64,000 nt of DNA from an uncultured Actinomycetota bacterium (GTDB lineage Bacteria > Actinomycetota > Actinomycetes > JAHEKZ01), in NCBI GenBank assembly GCA_963718235.1, contig CAVQYR010000001.1, positions 512,001 through 576,000 on the forward strand, read 5' to 3'. Below, one piece after another: positions 8,545-19,696 of the stretch. A model generated the notes under the pieces. It was not told the origin of the DNA. It saw nothing but the letters and a program-made list of their open reading frames with translations, and ran no database searches. The translations under genes were made by a program, and so were the position numbers. How positions within the stretch are numbered: position 1 is the first letter of the stretch; each line of letters begins with the position of its first letter.

Positions 8545-9641
8545 CGGTTCCGCGCACCTTCCGGTAGTACTCGTTGAACTGGTGCACGTAGTCGTCCTTC
8601 GCGGGGTAGACGCCGTGGTCGAACCCGCGGGACCGAACGCCCTTCTGGACCTTCTCCGAGACGGCGTAGTCCTGGCCGGCCACGAGCTCACAGAAGTCGA
8701 CGACGGGCGCCGGGTCGAAGTCGTCAGCGGCGATGTCCTCGGGGAGGAAGAGGTACTCGGTGTGCACCCGGGTCTGGAGTGGACCCTCCGGCACGAGTCG
8801 GGTCGCGACGGCGTTGCTGCCGGCGATGTCGATGAACATGTTGGGGAAGACCTGGCTGCCGAAGATCGAGTGGGTCTGCTCCTCGGTCATGTTGGGGAGC
8901 ACCGCGCGGCGAGCACGCTGGTCGTCGGAGTAGCTGGTGCCGCCGGTCTTGAGCGCGACGCCACCGTCGGACCGCCCGGGCTCGAAGACGACGCCCTTCT
9001 TGTAGGCGGGTACGACCTCGACGAGCTCGGGGTGGACGATCGGGCAGTGCAGGCACTCGTTGTAGTTCTCGATCAGGATCTTCCAGTTGGCCGCCACGAC
9101 GCTCTCGGTGCGGTGCACCGTGCGCAGCTGAGCGAGGTCGTGGATCTCGAACCGGATCGGGGAGTCGTAGTGGGCGTCGAGTGACTCACGCAACGGGGTC
9201 GGGGTCTCGCGGTCGAGGTTGACGAAGACGAAGCCCTGCCACTCGTCGACGTGCACCTGGCGCAGCGACAGCGAGGAGCGGTCGACCTCGTCGGCGTCCA
9301 CCCGAGGGGTTGCCACGAGTGCTCCGTCGAGGTCGTAGCACCAGGCGTGGTACGGACACTGGAAGACGGCCTTCGTGCTGCCCCGCTCGTCCTCGCAGAG
9401 CAGGGAGCCGCGGTGTCGGCACACGTTGTAAAAGGCGCGCAGCTGACCCGACTCGTTGCGGGTCACCAGGACGCTCTCACCGGCGACGTCGACCGTGAAG
9501 AACTGCGCCGGCCTCGCCGGCCTGCTCACTGCGTCCCGCGTACACCCACTGTCGGAACCAGATCTGCTCCTGCTCGAGGGCGTAGGTCTGGTCGTCGTAG
9601 TACTCGTGCGCTGGAAGGGTGCGTCGGGCCGCGGTGCTCAT
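8537..9641 (-). CDS. Rieske non-heme iron oxygenase alpha subunit (choline monooxygenase/stachydrine demethylase-like), frameshifted near 9506
   Basis: Rieske motif CRHRG...CPYHAW, ANWKILIENYNECLHCPIVH; the N-terminus MSTAARRTLPAHEYYDDQTYALEQEQIWFRQWVYAG starts at 9641 after GGAGGAG in another frame. Confidence 0.85.
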
Positions 9642-13695: not shown

Positions 13696-13788
13696 CGGGA
13701 TGCAGCTCCAATCCTGCTGAATGCCGAAGATTGCCAGGGTCGGGTACAGCCAAGAAGACCATCGGGCACATCTGCGCTTGCCCGGCCC

Positions 13789-13809
13789 GTGCCGATCACC
13801 GGCACATCG
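13789..13809 (+). repeat. Junction site B: GTGCCG-atcac-CGGCAC-ATCG (palindromic form)
   Basis: Read directly; a degenerate extra copy GGGCACATCT lies at about 13764. Confidence 0.7.
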
Positions 13810-13825
13810 CGCCACGATCACCGGC

Positions 13826-14231
13826 ATGTCCAGATCTATGGGCCGCACTCCCGCGATGCGGTTGACTGGATCTGTGCCAGTCGAGCCTGCGGCGTCCCGG
13901 TGGGGTGTGGCACTTGACCGCCCGTCCACGCGCCGATGGCTCTGGTTCGTCGCCTGGGTTGCGGTGGGGGCCATGGTGCCCATGGTTGTCCTGGGCGCTT
14001 TCACCATCGGCATCTTGTTCATCCCGGTCGCCGGGGTGCTGACATTGATCCTGCTCAGCCGTCGCGCCTCCTGGGTTGGCTTGCCAGGACTGATCACGGG
14101 CATCGGAGTGCCTCTGCTGGTGTTGGTAGGAGTGGGCCCCGTGGCCGTTTCTGCTGGTCAGCCTTGGACTCCTCATCGGCGGCATCGTCGTGTTCACCAG
14201 GCAGCGACCCAAGCCACCTGCCCCCGACTGA
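13826..14231 (+). CDS. Small multi-pass membrane protein, frameshifted near 14138
   Basis: Hydrophobic helices WLWFVAWVAVG..., continuing in a shifted frame as PWPFLLVSLGLLIGGIVVFTRQRPKPPAPD*. Confidence 0.55.
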
Positions 14232-14309
14232 TACCCCGACCCAGTGCAACCCGGAGGCCCTCGTGAGTGGGACGGTCGCTCCCGCACCGGCTAAGCCCTG
14301 AACGCCAAC

Positions 14310-14324
14310 GAGAACGGCACATCG
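14310..14324 (+). repeat. Junction site C: gagaa-CGGCAC-ATCG
   Basis: Read directly, intergenic. Confidence 0.75.
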
Positions 14325-14452
14325 ACGTGGCGACCGCCCCTTGAGACCGCGTTTCGCCTCGCTTCGTGGGCCACGCCTTTGTGTCCGTGTGGTGAGCGCG
14401 AACACGACGCTCTCCGTTGGCGGGGAGCCGGTACCGCGTCTAGCGTTGAGAC

Positions 14453-15376
14453 ATGAGAGCCATGGCCTATGACGCGTACGGTTCCGACGACGCTTTGACC
14501 TTGCGGGACATGCCCGATCCGAAGGTGGGTCCAGGCGAAGTGCGCATCCGGGTGAGACGCGCCGGAGTGAATCCGGTCGACTGGAAGGTGATGTCCGGTG
14601 GGCTGGATGGCCTCATGGACGCCGTCTTCCCGGTCATCCCCGGCTGGGATGTCGCCGGAACGGTCGAGACAGTCGGCATCGACGCCCCAGAGTTCGAGGT
14701 CGGCGACGAAGTCGTGGCATACGCACGCAAGGACGTGGTCCACGGCGGCACCTTCGCCGAACTGGTGACGATGAGCGTCCGGGGCGTGGCTCGCAAGGCG
14801 GAAGCGTTGAGTTGGGACGAGGCGGGCGGCCTCCCGCTCGCCGGGCTGACAGCCCTCCAGACGCTCGACCGGTTGACCGTCTCCGCCGCGGATACGGTTC
14901 TCGTGCACGGCGGAGCAGGGGGTGTCGGCGCCCTCGCCATCCAGATCGCCAAGGCGCGCGGCGCCCGTGTGATCGCCACCGCGTCGCCGGCCAACCACGA
15001 GTTCCTCTCCGGCCTCGGGGCCACGCCGGTCGCGTATGGCGACGGCGTCGTGCAGCGCATCCTCGAGGTTGCGCAGGACGGTGTCGACGTCGTCGCTGAC
15101 TTCGTGGGCGGGGTTCGCGACGTCACAATGGCCGTGCTCGCCACTGGCGGAAGGCACGCCTCCATCGCCGACGCTTCGGTGCTGGAGACCGGAGGCTCGT
15201 GGTTCTGGGTGCGGCCCTCGTCCGAGGGCCTGGCCGAGCTCGGTCAGCTGGCAGACGCCGGGCAGCTGTACGTCCCGGTTGCCGACGTCCTACCTTTGGA
15301 GGAGCTGACCGCTGCTTTCGCGCGCAGCCGGGAGGGTCATGTGCGCGGCAAGCTCGTCATCTCCGTCGCGGACTGA
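14453..15376 (+). CDS. NADP-dependent oxidoreductase (MDR/quinone reductase family)
   Basis: AGVNPVDWK, PGWDVAG, HGGAGGVG, GHVRGKLVI; TAGCGT-6nt-ATG. Confidence 0.9.
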   Translation: MRAMAYDAYGSDDALTLRDMPDPKVGPGEVRIRVRRAGVNPVDWKVMSGGLDGLMDAVFPVIPGWDVAGTVETVGIDAPEFEVGDEVVAYARKDVVHGGTFAELVTMSVRGVARKAEALSWDEAGGLPLAGLTALQTLDRLTVSAADTVLVHGGAGGVGALAIQIAKARGARVIATASPANHEFLSGLGATPVAYGDGVVQRILEVAQDGVDVVADFVGGVRDVTMAVLATGGRHASIADASVLETGGSWFWVRPSSEGLAELGQLADAGQLYVPVADVLPLEELTAAFARSREGHVRGKLVISVAD

Positions 15377-15377
15377 A

Positions 15378-15398
15378 GTGCCGTAGAACGGCACTCGG
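15378..15398 (+). repeat. Junction site D: GTGCCG-tagaa-CGGCAC-TCGG (palindromic form)
   Basis: Immediately after the TGA at 15376, between convergent genes. Confidence 0.75.
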
Positions 15399-15429
15399 CG
15401 GCAGAGCGGTTAGGCCAGGGTGTAGTCGA

Positions 15430-15840
15430 TCATCGGTAGGGGAGGTAGTCGATGCGGGTCGCGCGTCGCCGCCACCCTGGAAGGGGCCAGACGTTGTGCC
15501 AGGTACGGCTGACTGCGGTGCCGTCGCGCTCCTCAACGCAACCGCCCCGCCCCAGGTGGTAGGCGGTGGCTCTGCCCGCGACTGCTATGTCGAGGGTGTG
15601 CTCAACCGCCGGGCGGTCCCTGCTCGCGTCCTCTCCGAGTACTGCCGGGGCTGAGGCTGGGTCATCCAGGCGCACAGTTCCTGTTCCACCGATACCGAGG
15701 TACAGCACGACCCCTACTGATCCGGGGTTGTTGGGCTGGAGTCGGCAGGTGGACGAGCCGTCCTCGTCCGTGACCTCTAGGACTGCACAGTCAGGGAGTT
15801 GCGCGGCGCGTTCCTCGGAGTAGCTGCGCAGCTGCGACAT
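15430..15840 (-). CDS. Hypothetical protein
   Basis: ORF MSQLRSYSEERAAQLPDC...RIDYLPYR fills the interval between sites D and E. Confidence 0.55.
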   Translation of the reverse strand: MSQLRSYSEERAAQLPDCAVLEVTDEDGSSTCRLQPNNPGSVGVVLYLGIGGTGTVRLDDPASAPAVLGEDASRDRPAVEHTLDIAVAGRATAYHLGRGGCVEERDGTAVSRTWHNVWPLPGWRRRATRIDYLPYR

Positions 15841-15892
15841 GAGGACACGATTCGGGGAAGCCGTGGACCGTTCGTCGCATACCAACGCGAGC

Positions 15893-15907
15893 GAGATCGG
15901 CACGTCT
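15893..15907 (+). repeat. Junction site E: gagat-CGGCAC-GTCT
   Basis: Enclosed by the 9-bp inverted repeat AACGCGAGC/GCTCGCGTT. Confidence 0.7.
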
Positions 15908-15996
15908 GCTCGCGTTTCGGAGGGATGCGACCACCTGTCCAGCGTCATCCCGAGTGAGGATCCGCCTGCCTCCGGGTCCCGTGCCCCGGCGCGCCT

Positions 15997-16677
15997 TCAC
16001 GACTGCTCGGCGTCCGCGACCCCGAACTGTGTCCACTGCCCCTCGGAGATCACCTCGACGGAGCCGTCGACGACCTTGATGGCCGTCTGCTCGTCGATGG
16101 CGTAGGCGGGGATGCCGAGGTCAGCCGCCCACCGCTCCGCGTTGGCCAGGGTGTTGTCGGGGAAGGCGTTCAGGTGCGGGAAGATCGAGAAGTCGACGAC
16201 TCCCAACGTGCGGTCGTCCGGCGCGGACGGCCACTCCACGAAGGCCGCACCGACCCTCGGCGTCATCACCATGCTCCCAGCGCTCACCCCGACCCAGGCC
16301 TTGTCCGACAGCGTCGGCAGCAGGTCCGCTAACCCTGACTCGCGCATCCAATGGCACAGGTACGTCGCGTCACCGCCGTCGACAAGTAGCACGTCGGCCT
16401 CTCTGACCCATGGCACCCACCGCTCGGGCCCGATCGTGGGCAGTGCGGTGAGCTCGAGGACGCCAAGGGACGCCCAGCCCAAGCCGGACAGGTAACGGAA
16501 GTCGGGTTCGCACGCGACCAAGCCCCGCACCGATGTCGGGCCGCACATCGGGTGACCCCACTGCGCGGTCGGGACGCAGAGGGCGTGGCACTCCTCGACC
16601 GGCTTGCCAAGAAGTAGCACGAGCGCTGAGTGGATGGTTGGGTTCGTTACGCCCCCCGACGTAAGCAGCAGCTTCAT
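15997..16677 (-). CDS. Peptidase E (S51) family, class I amidotransferase-like
   Basis: MKLLLTSGG, VDGGDATYL, VGVSAGSMV, IFPHL, YAIDEQTAI. Confidence 0.85.
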   Translation of the reverse strand: MKLLLTSGGVTNPTIHSALVLLLGKPVEECHALCVPTAQWGHPMCGPTSVRGLVACEPDFRYLSGLGWASLGVLELTALPTIGPERWVPWVREADVLLVDGGDATYLCHWMRESGLADLLPTLSDKAWVGVSAGSMVMTPRVGAAFVEWPSAPDDRTLGVVDFSIFPHLNAFPDNTLANAERWAADLGIPAYAIDEQTAIKVVDGSVEVISEGQWTQFGVADAEQS

Positions 16678-16780
16678 GGTGCCTCCCGATTCGTGTGCGG
16701 GCTCGCAGACCGGCAGTAGCAGTCAAGCTCAAGTCAGACTCAGCCGACCGCGAATACATGTTCAACCGCGGGAGGCGATG

Positions 16781-16795
16781 CAGATCGGCACATAG
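16781..16795 (+). repeat. Junction site F: cagat-CGGCAC-ATAG
   Basis: Read directly, intergenic. Confidence 0.75.
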
Positions 16796-16825
16796 AGGGC
16801 GGTTGTTCGCACCCAGGAGTGCCGT

Positions 16826-17233
16826 TCAGTTGATGATCTCGCTGCCATCTGCGCGAATCGCCGCCAACCGGTCCCGCCACTCCTGTAGGGCCGCCGGTGT
16901 CAGCCGCGTCCAGTCGGTCACCTCGCCAACGATCCTGAGTGCCTCTCCGCTGCGGTAGGACCGGGTTGGGTTACCGGGGAACTTCCTGTCGGTCACGTTC
17001 GGGTCGTCCTCGAACGCCCCAATCGGCTCAACGGCGTAGACCCGGGGAGCTGCGTCGCCTGGCGCGAGTTCCGCAGCGAGCCCCGCACCGTCACGCAGTG
17101 CAGTGAAGTAGATGTGGTTCATCAGGACTTCCGGTCGGTAGTTCGACCGGAAGCCCGGGATGAGGAGATCCCCCATCCCCAGGTCGGCTTTCGTTCCGTG
17201 GAAGAACGGCCCCTCATCCAGCACGTCGCTCAA
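16826..17233 (-). CDS. arr: NAD(+)-rifampicin ADP-ribosyltransferase
   Basis: GPFFHGTKADL, NHIYFTA, VEPIGAFEDDPNVTDRKFPGNPTRSYRS; GGAGG RBS before TTG 17233. Confidence 0.93.
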   Translation of the reverse strand: MSDVLDEGPFFHGTKADLGMGDLLIPGFRSNYRPEVLMNHIYFTALRDGAGLAAELAPGDAAPRVYAVEPIGAFEDDPNVTDRKFPGNPTRSYRSGEALRIVGEVTDWTRLTPAALQEWRDRLAAIRADGSEIIN

Positions 17234-17301
17234 GGCCACTACCTCCGGGGACGAGACAAAGGTGCACTCGGACATCTTCGCGGATCATGCGAGAACCGAG
17301 C

Positions 17302-17316
17302 GCGATTTGCACATAG
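17302..17316 (+). repeat. Junction site G (degenerate): gcgat-TTGCAC-ATAG
   Basis: Two core mismatches but the correct position and flanks. Confidence 0.5.
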
Positions 17317-17361
17317 GCACGGCCTTGCCCAGTTCAGCCGTTACCGAGGATCATCCTCCGT

Positions 17362-17559
17362 ATGACATGGCGGCGATTCGCCCTCGGCGGACTCAGTTCC
17401 CTTGTGGCGCTCGTCGGCTATGTCGTGCTGTACCCGAGGCTTGTCGCTGCGGGCCATGCACCTCTGGACGCCCTCGGTTGGGCGCTGGCAGCTGCGTGTC
17501 TGGGCCTGTTCCTGGGCTCTCTCCTCATGGCGATCATGTCGCCGGCCAGGAGGCGCTGA
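17362..17559 (+). CDS. Small two-TM membrane protein (65 aa)
   Basis: Two hydrophobic helices; fits between sites G and H. Confidence 0.55.
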   Translation: MTWRRFALGGLSSLVALVGYVVLYPRLVAAGHAPLDALGWALAAACLGLFLGSLLMAIMSPARRR

Positions 17560-17570
17560 CCCATCCCGTC

Positions 17571-17585
17571 CAGATCGGCACATCG
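17571..17585 (+). repeat. Junction site H: cagat-CGGCAC-ATCG
   Basis: Between convergent genes. Confidence 0.75.
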
Positions 17586-17609
17586 GCGCGGCAGTGCCGG
17601 TGGTGACTG

Positions 17610-18071
17610 TCAATCGACAACTACTGGATCGTCGTCGGGGTTGAACACCGCTATCTCCTCGGGATCCAGGTCACAGGCGGTGGGGACCTCCAGAGCGATG
17701 TCAGCCGAGTCGGGGGCGTGGAAGCCACCCGCGCCTTGGACCGACTGACCCTCGGCGACCAGTGACCCGGACGGTAGCCGCACGACGAGCGGGTCAGCAT
17801 CGTCGAGCTCGGTGCCGCTCGGCCAGATGACCGCCACCACGCGATCCGGCGCGTATCCGAGCGCCAGGCCGACGCAGCCGTTGCGCAGGATCAGCGTTCC
17901 CGTGATCAGCGCGTCCTCCCCGCCACGCGGCAGCAGCGAGTCCTTGTGGACCATCAGGGTGACATCGCCTTCCGTCACAACCGTCTGCCCGCCACAAGCC
18001 GCGACGGTCGCCATGAGAACCACGGCGGCGCCCATGTAACCCGCCCGACGCCAATCAGCCGGTGCTCCCAT
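17610..18071 (-). CDS. Hypothetical lipoprotein
   Basis: Lipobox-like TVAACGG; DALITGTLILRNGCVGL...VIWPSGT...GAGG. Confidence 0.6.
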   Translation of the reverse strand: MGAPADWRRAGYMGAAVVLMATVAACGGQTVVTEGDVTLMVHKDSLLPRGGEDALITGTLILRNGCVGLALGYAPDRVVAVIWPSGTELDDADPLVVRLPSGSLVAEGQSVQGAGGFHAPDSADIALEVPTACDLDPEEIAVFNPDDDPVVVD

Positions 18072-18109
18072 AAGGGTCAGAATGCCGGATTGGGTGCAGG
18101 AAGGCGATC

Positions 18110-18124
18110 GAGAACGGCACCTCG
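18110..18124 (+). repeat. Junction site I: gagaa-CGGCAC-CTCG
   Basis: Between divergent genes. Confidence 0.75.
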
Positions 18125-18173
18125 GTGCGCCGGGCTCGGACTGGTTTCGTCGGGTCGTGGATAGCATCAGACG

Positions 18174-18779
18174 ATGTCCTTCGATGCCGTCATCTTCGAC
18201 CTTGGTGGCGTGCTCATCGACTATCAAGGAGTCGAACCGCTGAAGGTTCTCGCCGGCATTCAGGACGAGCAAGAGTTGTGGCGGCGCTGGCTCAGCTGCG
18301 AGTGGGTTCGCCGCTTCGAGCGGGGCCAGTGCTTGCCGGCGGAGTTCGCGAGTGGGGTTGTCGCCGATTGGGACCTTGGCGTGACCCCGGATGTGTTCCT
18401 GGCCCAGTTCCGGAGCTGGGTCCACGGGACGATCCCGGGTGCTGATGCCTTGGTCGCGGCCGTGCGGACCGAGGTTCCGGTGGCGTGCCTGAGCAATACC
18501 AACAGCCTGCACTGGCTCGACGGGGCATCGCAGTGGCCCTTCGTCGACCTGCTCGACCATGTCTTCTTGTCGTTCCAGCTGGGGATGGTCAAGCCCGACC
18601 GGGAGATCTTCGACCACGTCAGCCGGCAACTAGGGGCACCGGGCCGACGGCTGCTGTTCCTGGACGACAACACCTTGAACGTCGAGGCGGCAGTCGATGC
18701 TGGGTGGATCGCGGCAAAGGTGGACGGGGTGAATCAGGCCACGCAGGCACTCGCCCACCATGGGGTCCTACCCAGATGA
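18174..18779 (+). CDS. HAD-family phosphatase
   Basis: IFDLGGVL, LSNT, KPDREIF, FLDDNTLNV. Confidence 0.9.
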   Translation: MSFDAVIFDLGGVLIDYQGVEPLKVLAGIQDEQELWRRWLSCEWVRRFERGQCLPAEFASGVVADWDLGVTPDVFLAQFRSWVHGTIPGADALVAAVRTEVPVACLSNTNSLHWLDGASQWPFVDLLDHVFLSFQLGMVKPDREIFDHVSRQLGAPGRRLLFLDDNTLNVEAAVDAGWIAAKVDGVNQATQALAHHGVLPR

Positions 18780-18800
18780 CCGCACCTGTCCTCCGACGCA

Positions 18801-18815
18801 CATAGCGGCACTTCG
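18801..18815 (+). repeat. Junction site J: catag-CGGCAC-TTCG
   Basis: Between convergent genes. Confidence 0.6.
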
Positions 18816-18823
18816 GGGCGGCG

Positions 18824-19609
18824 TCAGGGCACCTGCCCGATTGCCTCCAGAACTGAGTCTTCGAGCCCGCGATAGCAGGTGAGGCACTCATCAATGGCCT
18901 CGAAGCCGACCGACTCATAGAGGGGCCGCCCGGCTGGCGTGGCCAGGAGAAGCGCTTCCGATGTTGCAGTCGACCATGTCGCGGCGAGGGCAGTCGTCAG
19001 GGCCGCCCTGCCTGCCCCTCGTCCCTGATGTCGCTTTGGCGTCATCATCTCCATGACTCCGATGCTGGATCCGGACCGACAGATCCAGACGGTGCTTACC
19101 GGTTGTCCACCGTGTCGAGCCAGCCACACCTGGGCCGCACCGAAACGAGCCGCCTGGCCCATGCTGGCGTCGAGCAAGTCGAGATCGACCGTGTGCGCCT
19201 CAGAGGTCAGGCGCAGCGCGACCTCGAGGTCCCCGTCGGTTTCGCAGCGCGAGACGCTGAACTTCGACGGGACGACCTCGGGTCGGTATCCGCACCTCAT
19301 CAAGGGCTCGGACATCTCGCCAGTGGTGAACCCCGCGTCAGTCAGGACGCGACGCGACGCAGGGATCAGATGCTCGGACGTGAAGACGATCCCCGGTTGA
19401 TCGGTGCCAACAACCTGTGCCAGATCGGAGGCGGACTTGTCGGATGCCCTCGGGGAGAGGCCGCAGACGTTCAGCTCGGCACTGCTCATCCGAGACAGCG
19501 CGGCGAACCAGCCATCCGACAGCACTCGTTCCGCCTCGACCCCGGCGGCGTAGAAATCGACGCACAGCGAAGCGAAGGACTCCCACGACTTCTGAAGGGC
19601 TGGATCCAT
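18824..19609 (-). CDS. GNAT family N-acetyltransferase
   Basis: TPKRHQGRGAGRA and ATPAGRPLYESVGF acetyl-CoA binding motifs. Confidence 0.8.
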   Translation of the reverse strand: MDPALQKSWESFASLCVDFYAAGVEAERVLSDGWFAALSRMSSAELNVCGLSPRASDKSASDLAQVVGTDQPGIVFTSEHLIPASRRVLTDAGFTTGEMSEPLMRCGYRPEVVPSKFSVSRCETDGDLEVALRLTSEAHTVDLDLLDASMGQAARFGAAQVWLARHGGQPVSTVWICRSGSSIGVMEMMTPKRHQGRGAGRAALTTALAATWSTATSEALLLATPAGRPLYESVGFEAIDECLTCYRGLEDSVLEAIGQVP

Positions 19610-19696
19610 GTGAGCGATACTGGCACCGATATTGCTCGGGTGACGTCGCCAGCTCGTGGGTACGAGCCGAACTGGAGAGCGCGAGGAGGACACCGG

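Follow-up and report, generated by a model that had tools for sequence, protein, structure and literature searches.

A 64,000-nucleotide stretch of the genome of an uncultured soil Actinomycetota bacterium (contig CAVQYR010000001.1, positions 512,001 to 576,000 of the forward strand; hereafter the window) contains an array of small accessory genes separated by copies of a short motif built around the hexamer CGGCAC. These sites are read here, at a rough probability of 0.55, as the recombination joints of a gene-cassette array, that is, as dif-like duplex sites served by a dedicated Xer-like recombinase. The sites bound single-gene modules, homology between genomes ends at their core, and they accompany the gene for a tyrosine recombinase, Int1, at every locus collected for that gene. 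Int1 is the probable enzyme, acting presumably on duplex DNA in a cycle of cassette excision and insertion. An initial annotation of the window had proposed that the core sits in the loop of hairpins with variable stems; for that narrow claim the useful result is a negative one.

Sites and single-gene cassettes

The motif was defined from 111 non-redundant sites, gathered from the window, a second array in the same genome, related genomes and contigs of metagenome-assembled genomes (MAGs). Their ungapped consensus is GCGAnCnAGAn-CGGCAC-nTCGGnGCGG, and the per-position counts of the co-oriented sites give a fuller reading of the left arm, GCGAGCGnGAW-CGGCAC-nTCGGnGCGG. Conservation spans positions -11 to +16, with an inner inverted repeat (GAW/nTC) around CGGCAC and an A-T pair at -2/+7 in 109 of the 111 sites; the outer symmetry of the arms needs a 1-nt bulge. 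In the window the motif stands on the plus strand in intergenic gaps between about 13.8 and 18.8 kb, whichever way the flanking genes run. It is also found between convergent gene ends, all copies keeping to one strand.

Such sites are concentrated at few places. Exact matches to GAWCGGCAC number eight between 13.7 and 18.2 kb, versus five in the remaining 58 kb of the window. The source genome (3.17 Mb in two contigs, C1 and C2; 95% complete) contains 30 matches scoring at least 18 to a position weight matrix trained on 46 sites, against one in a reversed-sequence control, and the conserved core noticed by the initial annotation is therefore non-random. Most of these matches fall into two arrays, at C1:526-531 kb (the window) and C1:1176-1191 kb, and a few are singletons. 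The second array holds about 17 sites in orientation blocks (-, +, -), a pattern that suggests inversions between inverted sites. A lone strong site apart from both arrays, on the plus strand at C2:324356 (matrix score 26.0), could mark one isolated insertion point, or be a remnant.

Arrays were also found in a genome of the same genus (G001), in two of the same family (G003 and G005) and in several MAG contigs. Among 20 genomes of the order, two or more strict matches occur only in these three and the source genome, while a backwards control pattern has none in all 20. An exact-pattern scan of genome contigs with GAGAWCGGCACNTCGGNGCG returned at least 120 stretches, mostly single chance matches in GC-rich genomes of many phyla; among the matches listed, a real array was recognized by eye in two, L104 and L105 (the contig of G001).

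Between co-oriented sites lie 71 cassettes with a median length of 669 nt (251-2567), of which the main open reading frame (ORF) fills a median of 77%. They encode, among others, Arr, peptidase S51, HAD, alcohol dehydrogenase (ADH), NUDIX, mycothiol S-transferase, APH, glyoxalase and YCII proteins. In 52 of 69 cassettes the direction of the main ORF is against that of the sites, so that arrays upstream of the recombinase gene (int) are transcribed away from it, as in integrons.

The modularity of these units is bounded at the core. Of 169 block ends taken from 44 non-recombinase homology blocks (150 nt or longer, different genomes), 24 are no more than 10 nt away from a core, compared with 1.28 ± 1.05 at random (maximum 5 in 1000 trials). 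The peptidase S51 cassette of the window (15898-16791) illustrates the point: it is 78% identical to a stretch of G003 (L002:14941-15838) that stands among other neighbours, and the match begins and ends on cores. At its junctions the left arm (GGCGATsCAGAT) stays with the left cassette, and the sequence from +6 onward goes with the right cassette; this places the exchange at CGGCAC, to within about a base. Homology with another G003 cassette starts 7 nt before the core of site G, and for the cassette to the right of that site the similarity to its homologue is lost about 120 nt before site I. Since homology blocks end at the core and the sites bound single-gene modules, the premise of the initial annotation that these are cassette sites is supported.

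The array was also compared with Logan contigs of four sequencing runs, which are short and of low depth. One contig, from run X3, matches the window from 18115 on; what stands before this position in the contig is another left arm, close to the consensus. It is the one informative loose end, and no joint that skips a cassette was found in the parts covered. Homologues of the window's Arr are present in G001, G003 and G005, and a copy of the ADH gene in G001, 86% identical, has no sites beside it.

Genes for YCII-family proteins and sigma factors recur in these surroundings. Pairs of a YCII-family gene and a gene for an extracytoplasmic function (ECF) sigma factor with a DUF6596 extension lie beside or inside arrays in G001 and G005 (L004:4109-5667 and L006:12820-14450). 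In G003 two sites enclose a sigma-70 region-4 gene (L002:11661-12734), and past the last recognized site of that locus there is a separate YCII gene (16686-17141); YCII genes are found as cassettes as well.

A candidate recombinase and its predicted action

The second array (locus L001, C1:1172001-1192000) contains two PF00589 genes, at L001:7944-9407 (Int2) and L001:2616-3368 (Int1). At its full length of 303 amino acids Int1 is a simple tyrosine recombinase without an arm-binding domain (PF00589, 67.9 bits), and the catalytic motifs LRVSE, GKGNK, HALRH, ARHAD and TRY can be read by eye in the translations. It is Xer-like, with 125 (XerD) and 120 bits against XerC/XerD equivalog cut-offs of about 330, and its closest solved relatives are XerD (1a0p, the best), XerA and Brujita gp33 (5vfz). 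On integron-integrase models it reaches 71 bits (TIGR02249, cut-off 265) and 29.6 bits (NF011946, cut-off 435). The best stretches on these two models are C-terminal, residues 219-283 and 220-282, respectively, and the Xer models score higher.

Int1 and the sites occur together. All 17 Int1-homologue loci have at least one site within 3 kb, and in all 17 there are sites upstream of int; the loci were fetched with Int1 as the query, and the matrix had been trained on other genomes. These loci are 67-98% identical to one another by blastn and 75-91% identical to the source genome's copy in the best tblastn segment. The upstream sites lie on the int strand, 240-540 nt before a conserved block that precedes int, while downstream sites are inverted. 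The fallback of the initial annotation, a tyrosine-recombinase core, is supported. In some MAGs Int1 is present in several copies, often at contig ends.

Two further features accompany the gene. In five loci (L001:1995-2603 on the plus strand, L009, L011, L012 and L021) a convergent DUF7711 gene follows directly downstream of Int1, and its product is possibly an accessory factor. The conserved block upstream of int starts sharply with a left-arm-like GCGAGCG..GAA-TGCCGGAT, a word that also opens the long arms described below; its start was located in six loci (L008:5068, L009:8654, L011:4114, L021:9731, L016:9732 and L044:9731). This start could represent another type of junction, or a place of accessory binding.

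Int2 was considered as the main enzyme of the array and rejected: its gene carries an in-frame stop (8547-8549), and it lies beside a 300-bp direct repeat that contains part of a tRNA-Gly gene. It looks like an ordinary tRNA-targeting island integrase. The two copies of the repeat (L001:7559-7858 and 19368-19667) are 98% identical; each has a cassette site at its start and takes in 35 nt from the 3' end of tRNA-Gly(TCC). They bracket an 11.8-kb block in which the phage-type integrase comes first and eight cassettes are in flipped orientation. The tRNA-proximal site and its left arm recur in L104 and L021.

On this evidence each site would be an asymmetric, double-stranded, Xer/dif-like element of about 28 bp. 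It would consist of a left arm of about 11 bp (GCGAGCGnGAW), a 6-bp centre and a right arm of about 11 bp (nTCGGnGCGGn), the innermost bases (GAW and nTC) forming a short inverted repeat. Strand exchange would take place within the invariant centre CGGCAC, so that the left arm would belong to the left cassette and the right arm to the right one. In about one-fifth of the sites the left arm reaches some 45 nt, with an inverted core, TGCCGG, about 33 nt upstream; this inverted copy could be an accessory binding site giving the reaction its direction. Int1 is the most likely enzyme; in related genomes its gene stands at the head of the array, divergent from the cassette genes. Recombination between two direct sites would excise a cassette as a circle, which, all centres being the same, could then enter any other site, and recombination between inverted sites would invert the segment between them.

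The window array has no recombinase gene and is in this respect like an attC cluster without an integron-integrase (CALIN). The alignment of the source genome's only Int1 copy begins at residue 48 (87% identity); upstream of this the frame is lost. As this copy, beside the second array, has a degenerate 5' end, the arrays of this genome may now be static. A wider proposal, put forward tentatively and at slightly less than even odds, is that some Actinomycetota possess a self-contained integron-like platform for gene capture built from different parts (a dedicated Xer-like recombinase, short duplex dif-like sites whose 6-bp exchange region is invariant, and cassettes with a promoter-side long arm of their own), for which satellite arrays such as that of the window would be reservoirs.

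Several observations weigh against sites of this kind being recombined by Int1. No circular junction or other direct trace of recombination was seen in the Logan contigs, short and shallow as these are. G003, which is 100% complete in nine contigs, has an array of at least eight sites and only three PF00589 matches, two of them strong Xer-type proteins and the third unclassified; the Int1 of the source genome lacks about 47 readable first codons, and the copy in G005 consists of two overlapping matches, so that many arrays are without an intact enzyme. None of these sites is seen with the relatives of Int1 that are more distant (42-64% identity; Nocardia, Micrococcales and others). The arms are weakly dyad-symmetric, and an outer repeat with a 1-nt bulge is unusual for two like monomers on duplex DNA. 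Since int is flanked by inverted sites, recombination would invert it rather than excise it. About one-fifth of the sites carry a position-specific inverted copy of the core, and a bulged-stem model of the site gives a covariation score of 0.175 versus 0.142 after shuffling (1/500).

Around the distant relatives, a look at k-mers gave nothing interpretable apart from repeated words at two loci. At L035 and L031 (Nocardia arseniciresistens and Occultella gossypii, respectively) 10-mers of the GAGCCATCGA type occur six to seven times and CCCGACGGCG eight times, near recombinase genes about 50% identical to Int1. These repeats might be other site families or simple tandem repeats.

The window array and the folding of its sites

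The array lies in DNA of high GC content (70% across the window). Third-codon-position GC is 0.80-0.93, mostly 0.88 or less, for genes called in the first 20 kb or so, the array included, and 0.90-0.94 for most genes to the right of it. The cargo consists of unrelated small accessory genes in mixed orientation (Table 1). A Pfam domain search found no integrase gene between 1 and 22 kb, and there is no tRNA gene across the whole window. The initial annotation had ended the array at site I; it extends to site J (core 18806), after which no matrix match of 12 or more occurs between C1:530806 and 540595. A decayed site at 17307 is likewise an addition to the earlier list.

Single features deserve comment. 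At site B a 22-nt near-copy stands in tandem (13797-13840), with CGGCAC followed by CGGCAT (core 13822). Site D lacks the base between the core and TCGG and has an inverted core, GTGCCG, 5 nt upstream. The listed ORF at 15430-15948 overlaps site E, and its true start therefore probably lies further inward. To the left, the array is adjoined by a gene of the serine beta-lactamase family (PF00144; 12679-13695, plus strand), which has a 68% identical homologue within a site-bounded cassette of another locus (L015, 6553-7958). This gene may be a decayed cassette with eroded sites (12576 and 13800).

Table 1. Features of the window array, in window positions. Fold values are for 25 nt on either side of each site, computed with DNA parameters and 200 dinucleotide shuffles per site.
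Feature	Position	Strand	Matrix score	Description	Fold z	Shuffles as good (of 200)
Site B	13789..13816	+	<12	GTGCCG-N5-CGGCAC palindrome; doubtful or degenerate; core in stem	-0.9	34
Cassette gene, small ORF	13936..14301	+		No Pfam family		
Site C	14304..14331	+	27.9	Core 14315-14320	-0.08	79
Cassette gene	14453..15376	+		Zinc-type alcohol dehydrogenase / quinone oxidoreductase (Pfam ADH_N, ADH_zinc_N_2)		
Site D	15378..15405	+	15.0	Core 15389-15394; degenerate; core in stem	-1.2	23
Cassette ORF	15430..15948	-		No Pfam family		
Site E	15887..15914	+	28.1	Core 15898-15903; 12-bp stem	-3.26	0
Cassette gene	15997..16677	-		Peptidase S51 family (Pfam PF03575)		
Site F	16775..16802	+	28.1	Core 16786-16791	-2.0	9
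Cassette gene	16826..17275	-		Arr-type rifampin ADP-ribosyltransferase (Pfam PF12120, E 3e-45)		
Decayed site between arr and small ORF	17296..17323	+	13.9 (at C1:529307)	Core TTGCAC		
Small ORF	17362..17559	+		65 amino acids; no Pfam family		
Site G	17565..17592	+	29.3	Core 17576-17581	+0.38	122
Cassette ORF	17610..18071	-		About 153 amino acids, approximate coordinates; no Pfam family		
Distal inverted core copy	18083..18088	+		TGCCGG, 32 nt upstream of the site I core; part of long left arm		
Site I	18104..18131	+	31.9	Core 18115-18120	+0.96	173
Cassette gene	18174..18779	+		HAD-family hydrolase (Pfam PF00702)		
Site J	18795..18822	+	21.6	Core 18806-18811; last recognizable site	-0.34	76
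GNAT acetyltransferase gene	18824..19693	-		Adjoins site J, no site after (Pfam)		

The initial annotation had drawn its hairpins from sites I, E, B and D. All four quoted strings are present where it had placed them, and B and D do read as GTGCCG-N5-CGGCAC palindromes. In these two, CGGCAC forms one arm of the palindrome and hence stands in the stem, not in the loop; the stem proposed for site I is absent from the minimum-energy fold. Of the eight window sites folded, only E is more stable than all 200 of its shuffles.

Nor do the stems behave as site-specific. Over the 111 sites the duplex between a site's own left and right 25-nt flanks averages -9.83 kcal/mol and that between flanks exchanged among sites -9.65 (z -0.88; 38/200); own flanks are slightly better than dinucleotide-shuffled ones (-9.21; z -3.4). 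Fixed-register pair counts give z values between -0.14 and 2.26. The 5' and 3' ends of cassettes, which would meet in a circle, are not complementary (z -0.67 and -1.06). When a bulged stem enclosing the core is imposed, 51.5% of the cells pair, versus 49.1% in shuffles (13/500) and 37-40% when the register is slid. The covariation score mentioned above comes mainly from T-A beside G-C at -3/+8 (10 versus 57 sites) and from W-W at -1/+6, and RNAalifold predicts no pairs at all on the alignment of 111 sites.

The small complementarity of the flanks arises because the arms are conserved: it is a short conserved inverted repeat (GAW/nTC, partly GCGC/GCGC with a bulge) rather than a set of variable stems. 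The apparent hairpins are a chance product of GC-rich flanks and two semi-conserved arms. Recognition of folded single strands, as with attC/IntI or HUH enzymes, is thus unsupported, and folds that do no better than shuffled sequence, with no covarying pairs, are what the initial annotation had itself named as speaking against it.

A folded site fares best in an amended form, in which one strand folds and the recombinase reads the structure. Here a distal TGCCG(G) would pair with the core CGGCA, and the core would stand at the base of an imperfect hairpin of about 45 nt, like an R''/R' box, in place of the loop position given earlier. This form starts from a real feature of the left arm. TGCCG, the complement of the core, begins at -35 to -32 in 21 of the 111 sites and is found within 45 nt upstream in 30 sites versus downstream in 10. 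The long arm, which is carried by the cassette on the promoter side of most genes, reads roughly GAA-TGCCGG-WTCG ... GCGAGCGnGAW-CGGCAC, and some examples fold to near-complete bulged hairpins (L001:13666, -14.2 kcal/mol; L011:978, -11.8 kcal/mol).

With the outer 5 bp forced closed, pairing in the spacer of the long arms slightly exceeds that of a full shuffle (z -2.1; 8/300), and the 12-bp stem of site E and the weak covariation score point the same way. Against this, the distal copy belongs to a minority of sites, and when the spacer's conserved terminal 5 nt are left in place, pairing of the interior does not exceed that of shuffles (z -0.9; 62/300). RNAalifold on 22 long arms recovers only the four TGCC/GGCA pairs by which they had been selected, with no compensatory change. 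Taken over the full set of 111, left arms are no more stable than their shuffles (z -1.5); upstream pairing of the core is seen in 56 sites, where shuffles give 46 ± 5 and random genomic copies of CGGCAC would give 53. The evidence for a long-arm hairpin as a class is weak. With junction flanks that pair like permuted partners and an Int1 that scores poorly on TIGR02249, attC-like sites are an unlikely explanation.

A reading somewhat less likely still keeps the duplex site and changes the enzyme: the host XerC and XerD would act on the sites, as proposed for the pdif modules of Acinetobacter, and Int1 would be a mere passenger. The apparent 11-6-11 layout resembles dif as described in the available part of one account (PMC6449649), two strong Xer-type genes are present in every genome examined, and arrays occur where Int1 is absent or damaged. 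The source genome has a single dif-like site, TTCGCCGATAA-TAGACA-TTATGTCATTT at C1:1739263, found with the Frankia motif as given in the available part of its description (PMC3025954). Its inner arms are AT-rich (GATAA and TTATG), and because it shares nothing with the cassette site, the host Xer proteins are unlikely to be the enzyme. The constant company of Int1 at the 17 loci also argues against a passenger, and so do the direct repeats and invariant centre seen here, as opposed to the inverted repeats and more variable centre of pdif sites in the available text (PMC6449649).

That the motif is regulatory or structural (an operator, an ECF-sigma promoter, a terminator or a repetitive extragenic palindromic (REP)-like repeat handled by a HUH enzyme) is very improbable: it is intergenic, recurs beside stress and detoxification genes and has ECF sigma/YCII pairs near some arrays, but the promoter or regulator form is rejected on strand logic, as one strand is kept whichever way genes run and sites also separate convergent ends, homology blocks end at the core, and copies are confined to two loci instead of being spread genome-wide like REP elements. 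An Rfam scan of 12-20 kb (E ≤ 1) gave nothing at the sites, with one sub-threshold riboswitch-like match inside the ADH gene. In the source genome, 95% complete, there is no Y1 HUH transposase gene (PF01797), and the only serine recombinase found is a resolvase fragment far away at C1:2933-3139.

Relation to known systems

In textbook accounts it is through integrons that bacteria gather and rearrange single genes, and Actinobacteria supply most antibiotic and resistance genes in soil. Should the sites be joints for a dedicated Xer-like recombinase, cassette capture would have evolved more than once, and accessory genes of the arr, APH and glyoxalase type would have a route of gene-by-gene mobility. 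A short searchable motif and a marker recombinase would then be at hand for finding such arrays in metagenomes. In the literature on integron-like cassette systems and actinobacterial dif sites no description of this system was found, supplements lying outside the search.

The likeness to integrons and CALINs is one of architecture. Arrays of mostly single-gene cassettes (median 669 nt) lie between co-oriented sites, and each cassette takes along the part of the site that is specific to it. At the head of the array stands a gene for a tyrosine recombinase, divergent from the cassette genes, and orphan arrays such as that of the window have no recombinase. The cargo consists of accessory enzymes, resistance-type genes included. 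The differences concern the parts. The site is short: it measures about 28 bp, rising to about 45-50 bp when the long arm is counted, and conserves CGGCAC, whereas the attC consensus of integrons is GTTRRRY. It has no conserved hairpin or covariation in the flank-pairing, folding, bulged-stem and RNAalifold comparisons given above. For most genes the arm borne by the cassette is on the promoter side and not downstream of them; the Xer-like recombinase falls below the integron-integrase models; and gene orientation in the window array is mixed. In the available part of one survey, Actinobacteria are without complete integrons, and CALINs are frequent and often far from any intI (PMC4889954).

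Comparable in the form of the site are the pdif modules of Acinetobacter. According to the available part of their description, dif sites measure 28 bp, with 11-bp arms, palindromic inner arms and a 6-bp centre that varies more, and conserved inverted repeats stand on either side of dif modules (PMC6449649). As is likely here, accessory-gene modules are bounded by 28-bp sites of 11-6-11 layout and occur in different contexts, and no dedicated hairpin is needed. The cassette sites differ in having an invariant centre and degenerate arms, where the centres of pdif sites are the more variable part (PMC6449649, available text). Their arrays are chromosomal direct repeats in contrast to inverted repeats around plasmid modules, and a dedicated Xer-like recombinase co-occurs with them while the host's dif-like site is unrelated.

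The enzyme has its own relatives. Like Xer proteins and Brujita-type integrases, Int1 is a simple tyrosine recombinase of 303 amino acids, with XerD, XerA and gp33 as the nearest structures. In contrast to them, it falls below the XerC/XerD cut-offs, is multi-copy in some MAGs, and goes with arrays rather than with a single terminus site or a prophage. The opposite-orientation blocks of sites in the second array, suggestive of inversions, recall shufflons and tyrosine invertases; what differs is that the units are entire independent genes in place of alternative gene ends, with most sites as direct repeats. Among all these systems the architecture is that of integrons and CALINs, and the site and the enzyme are different from theirs.

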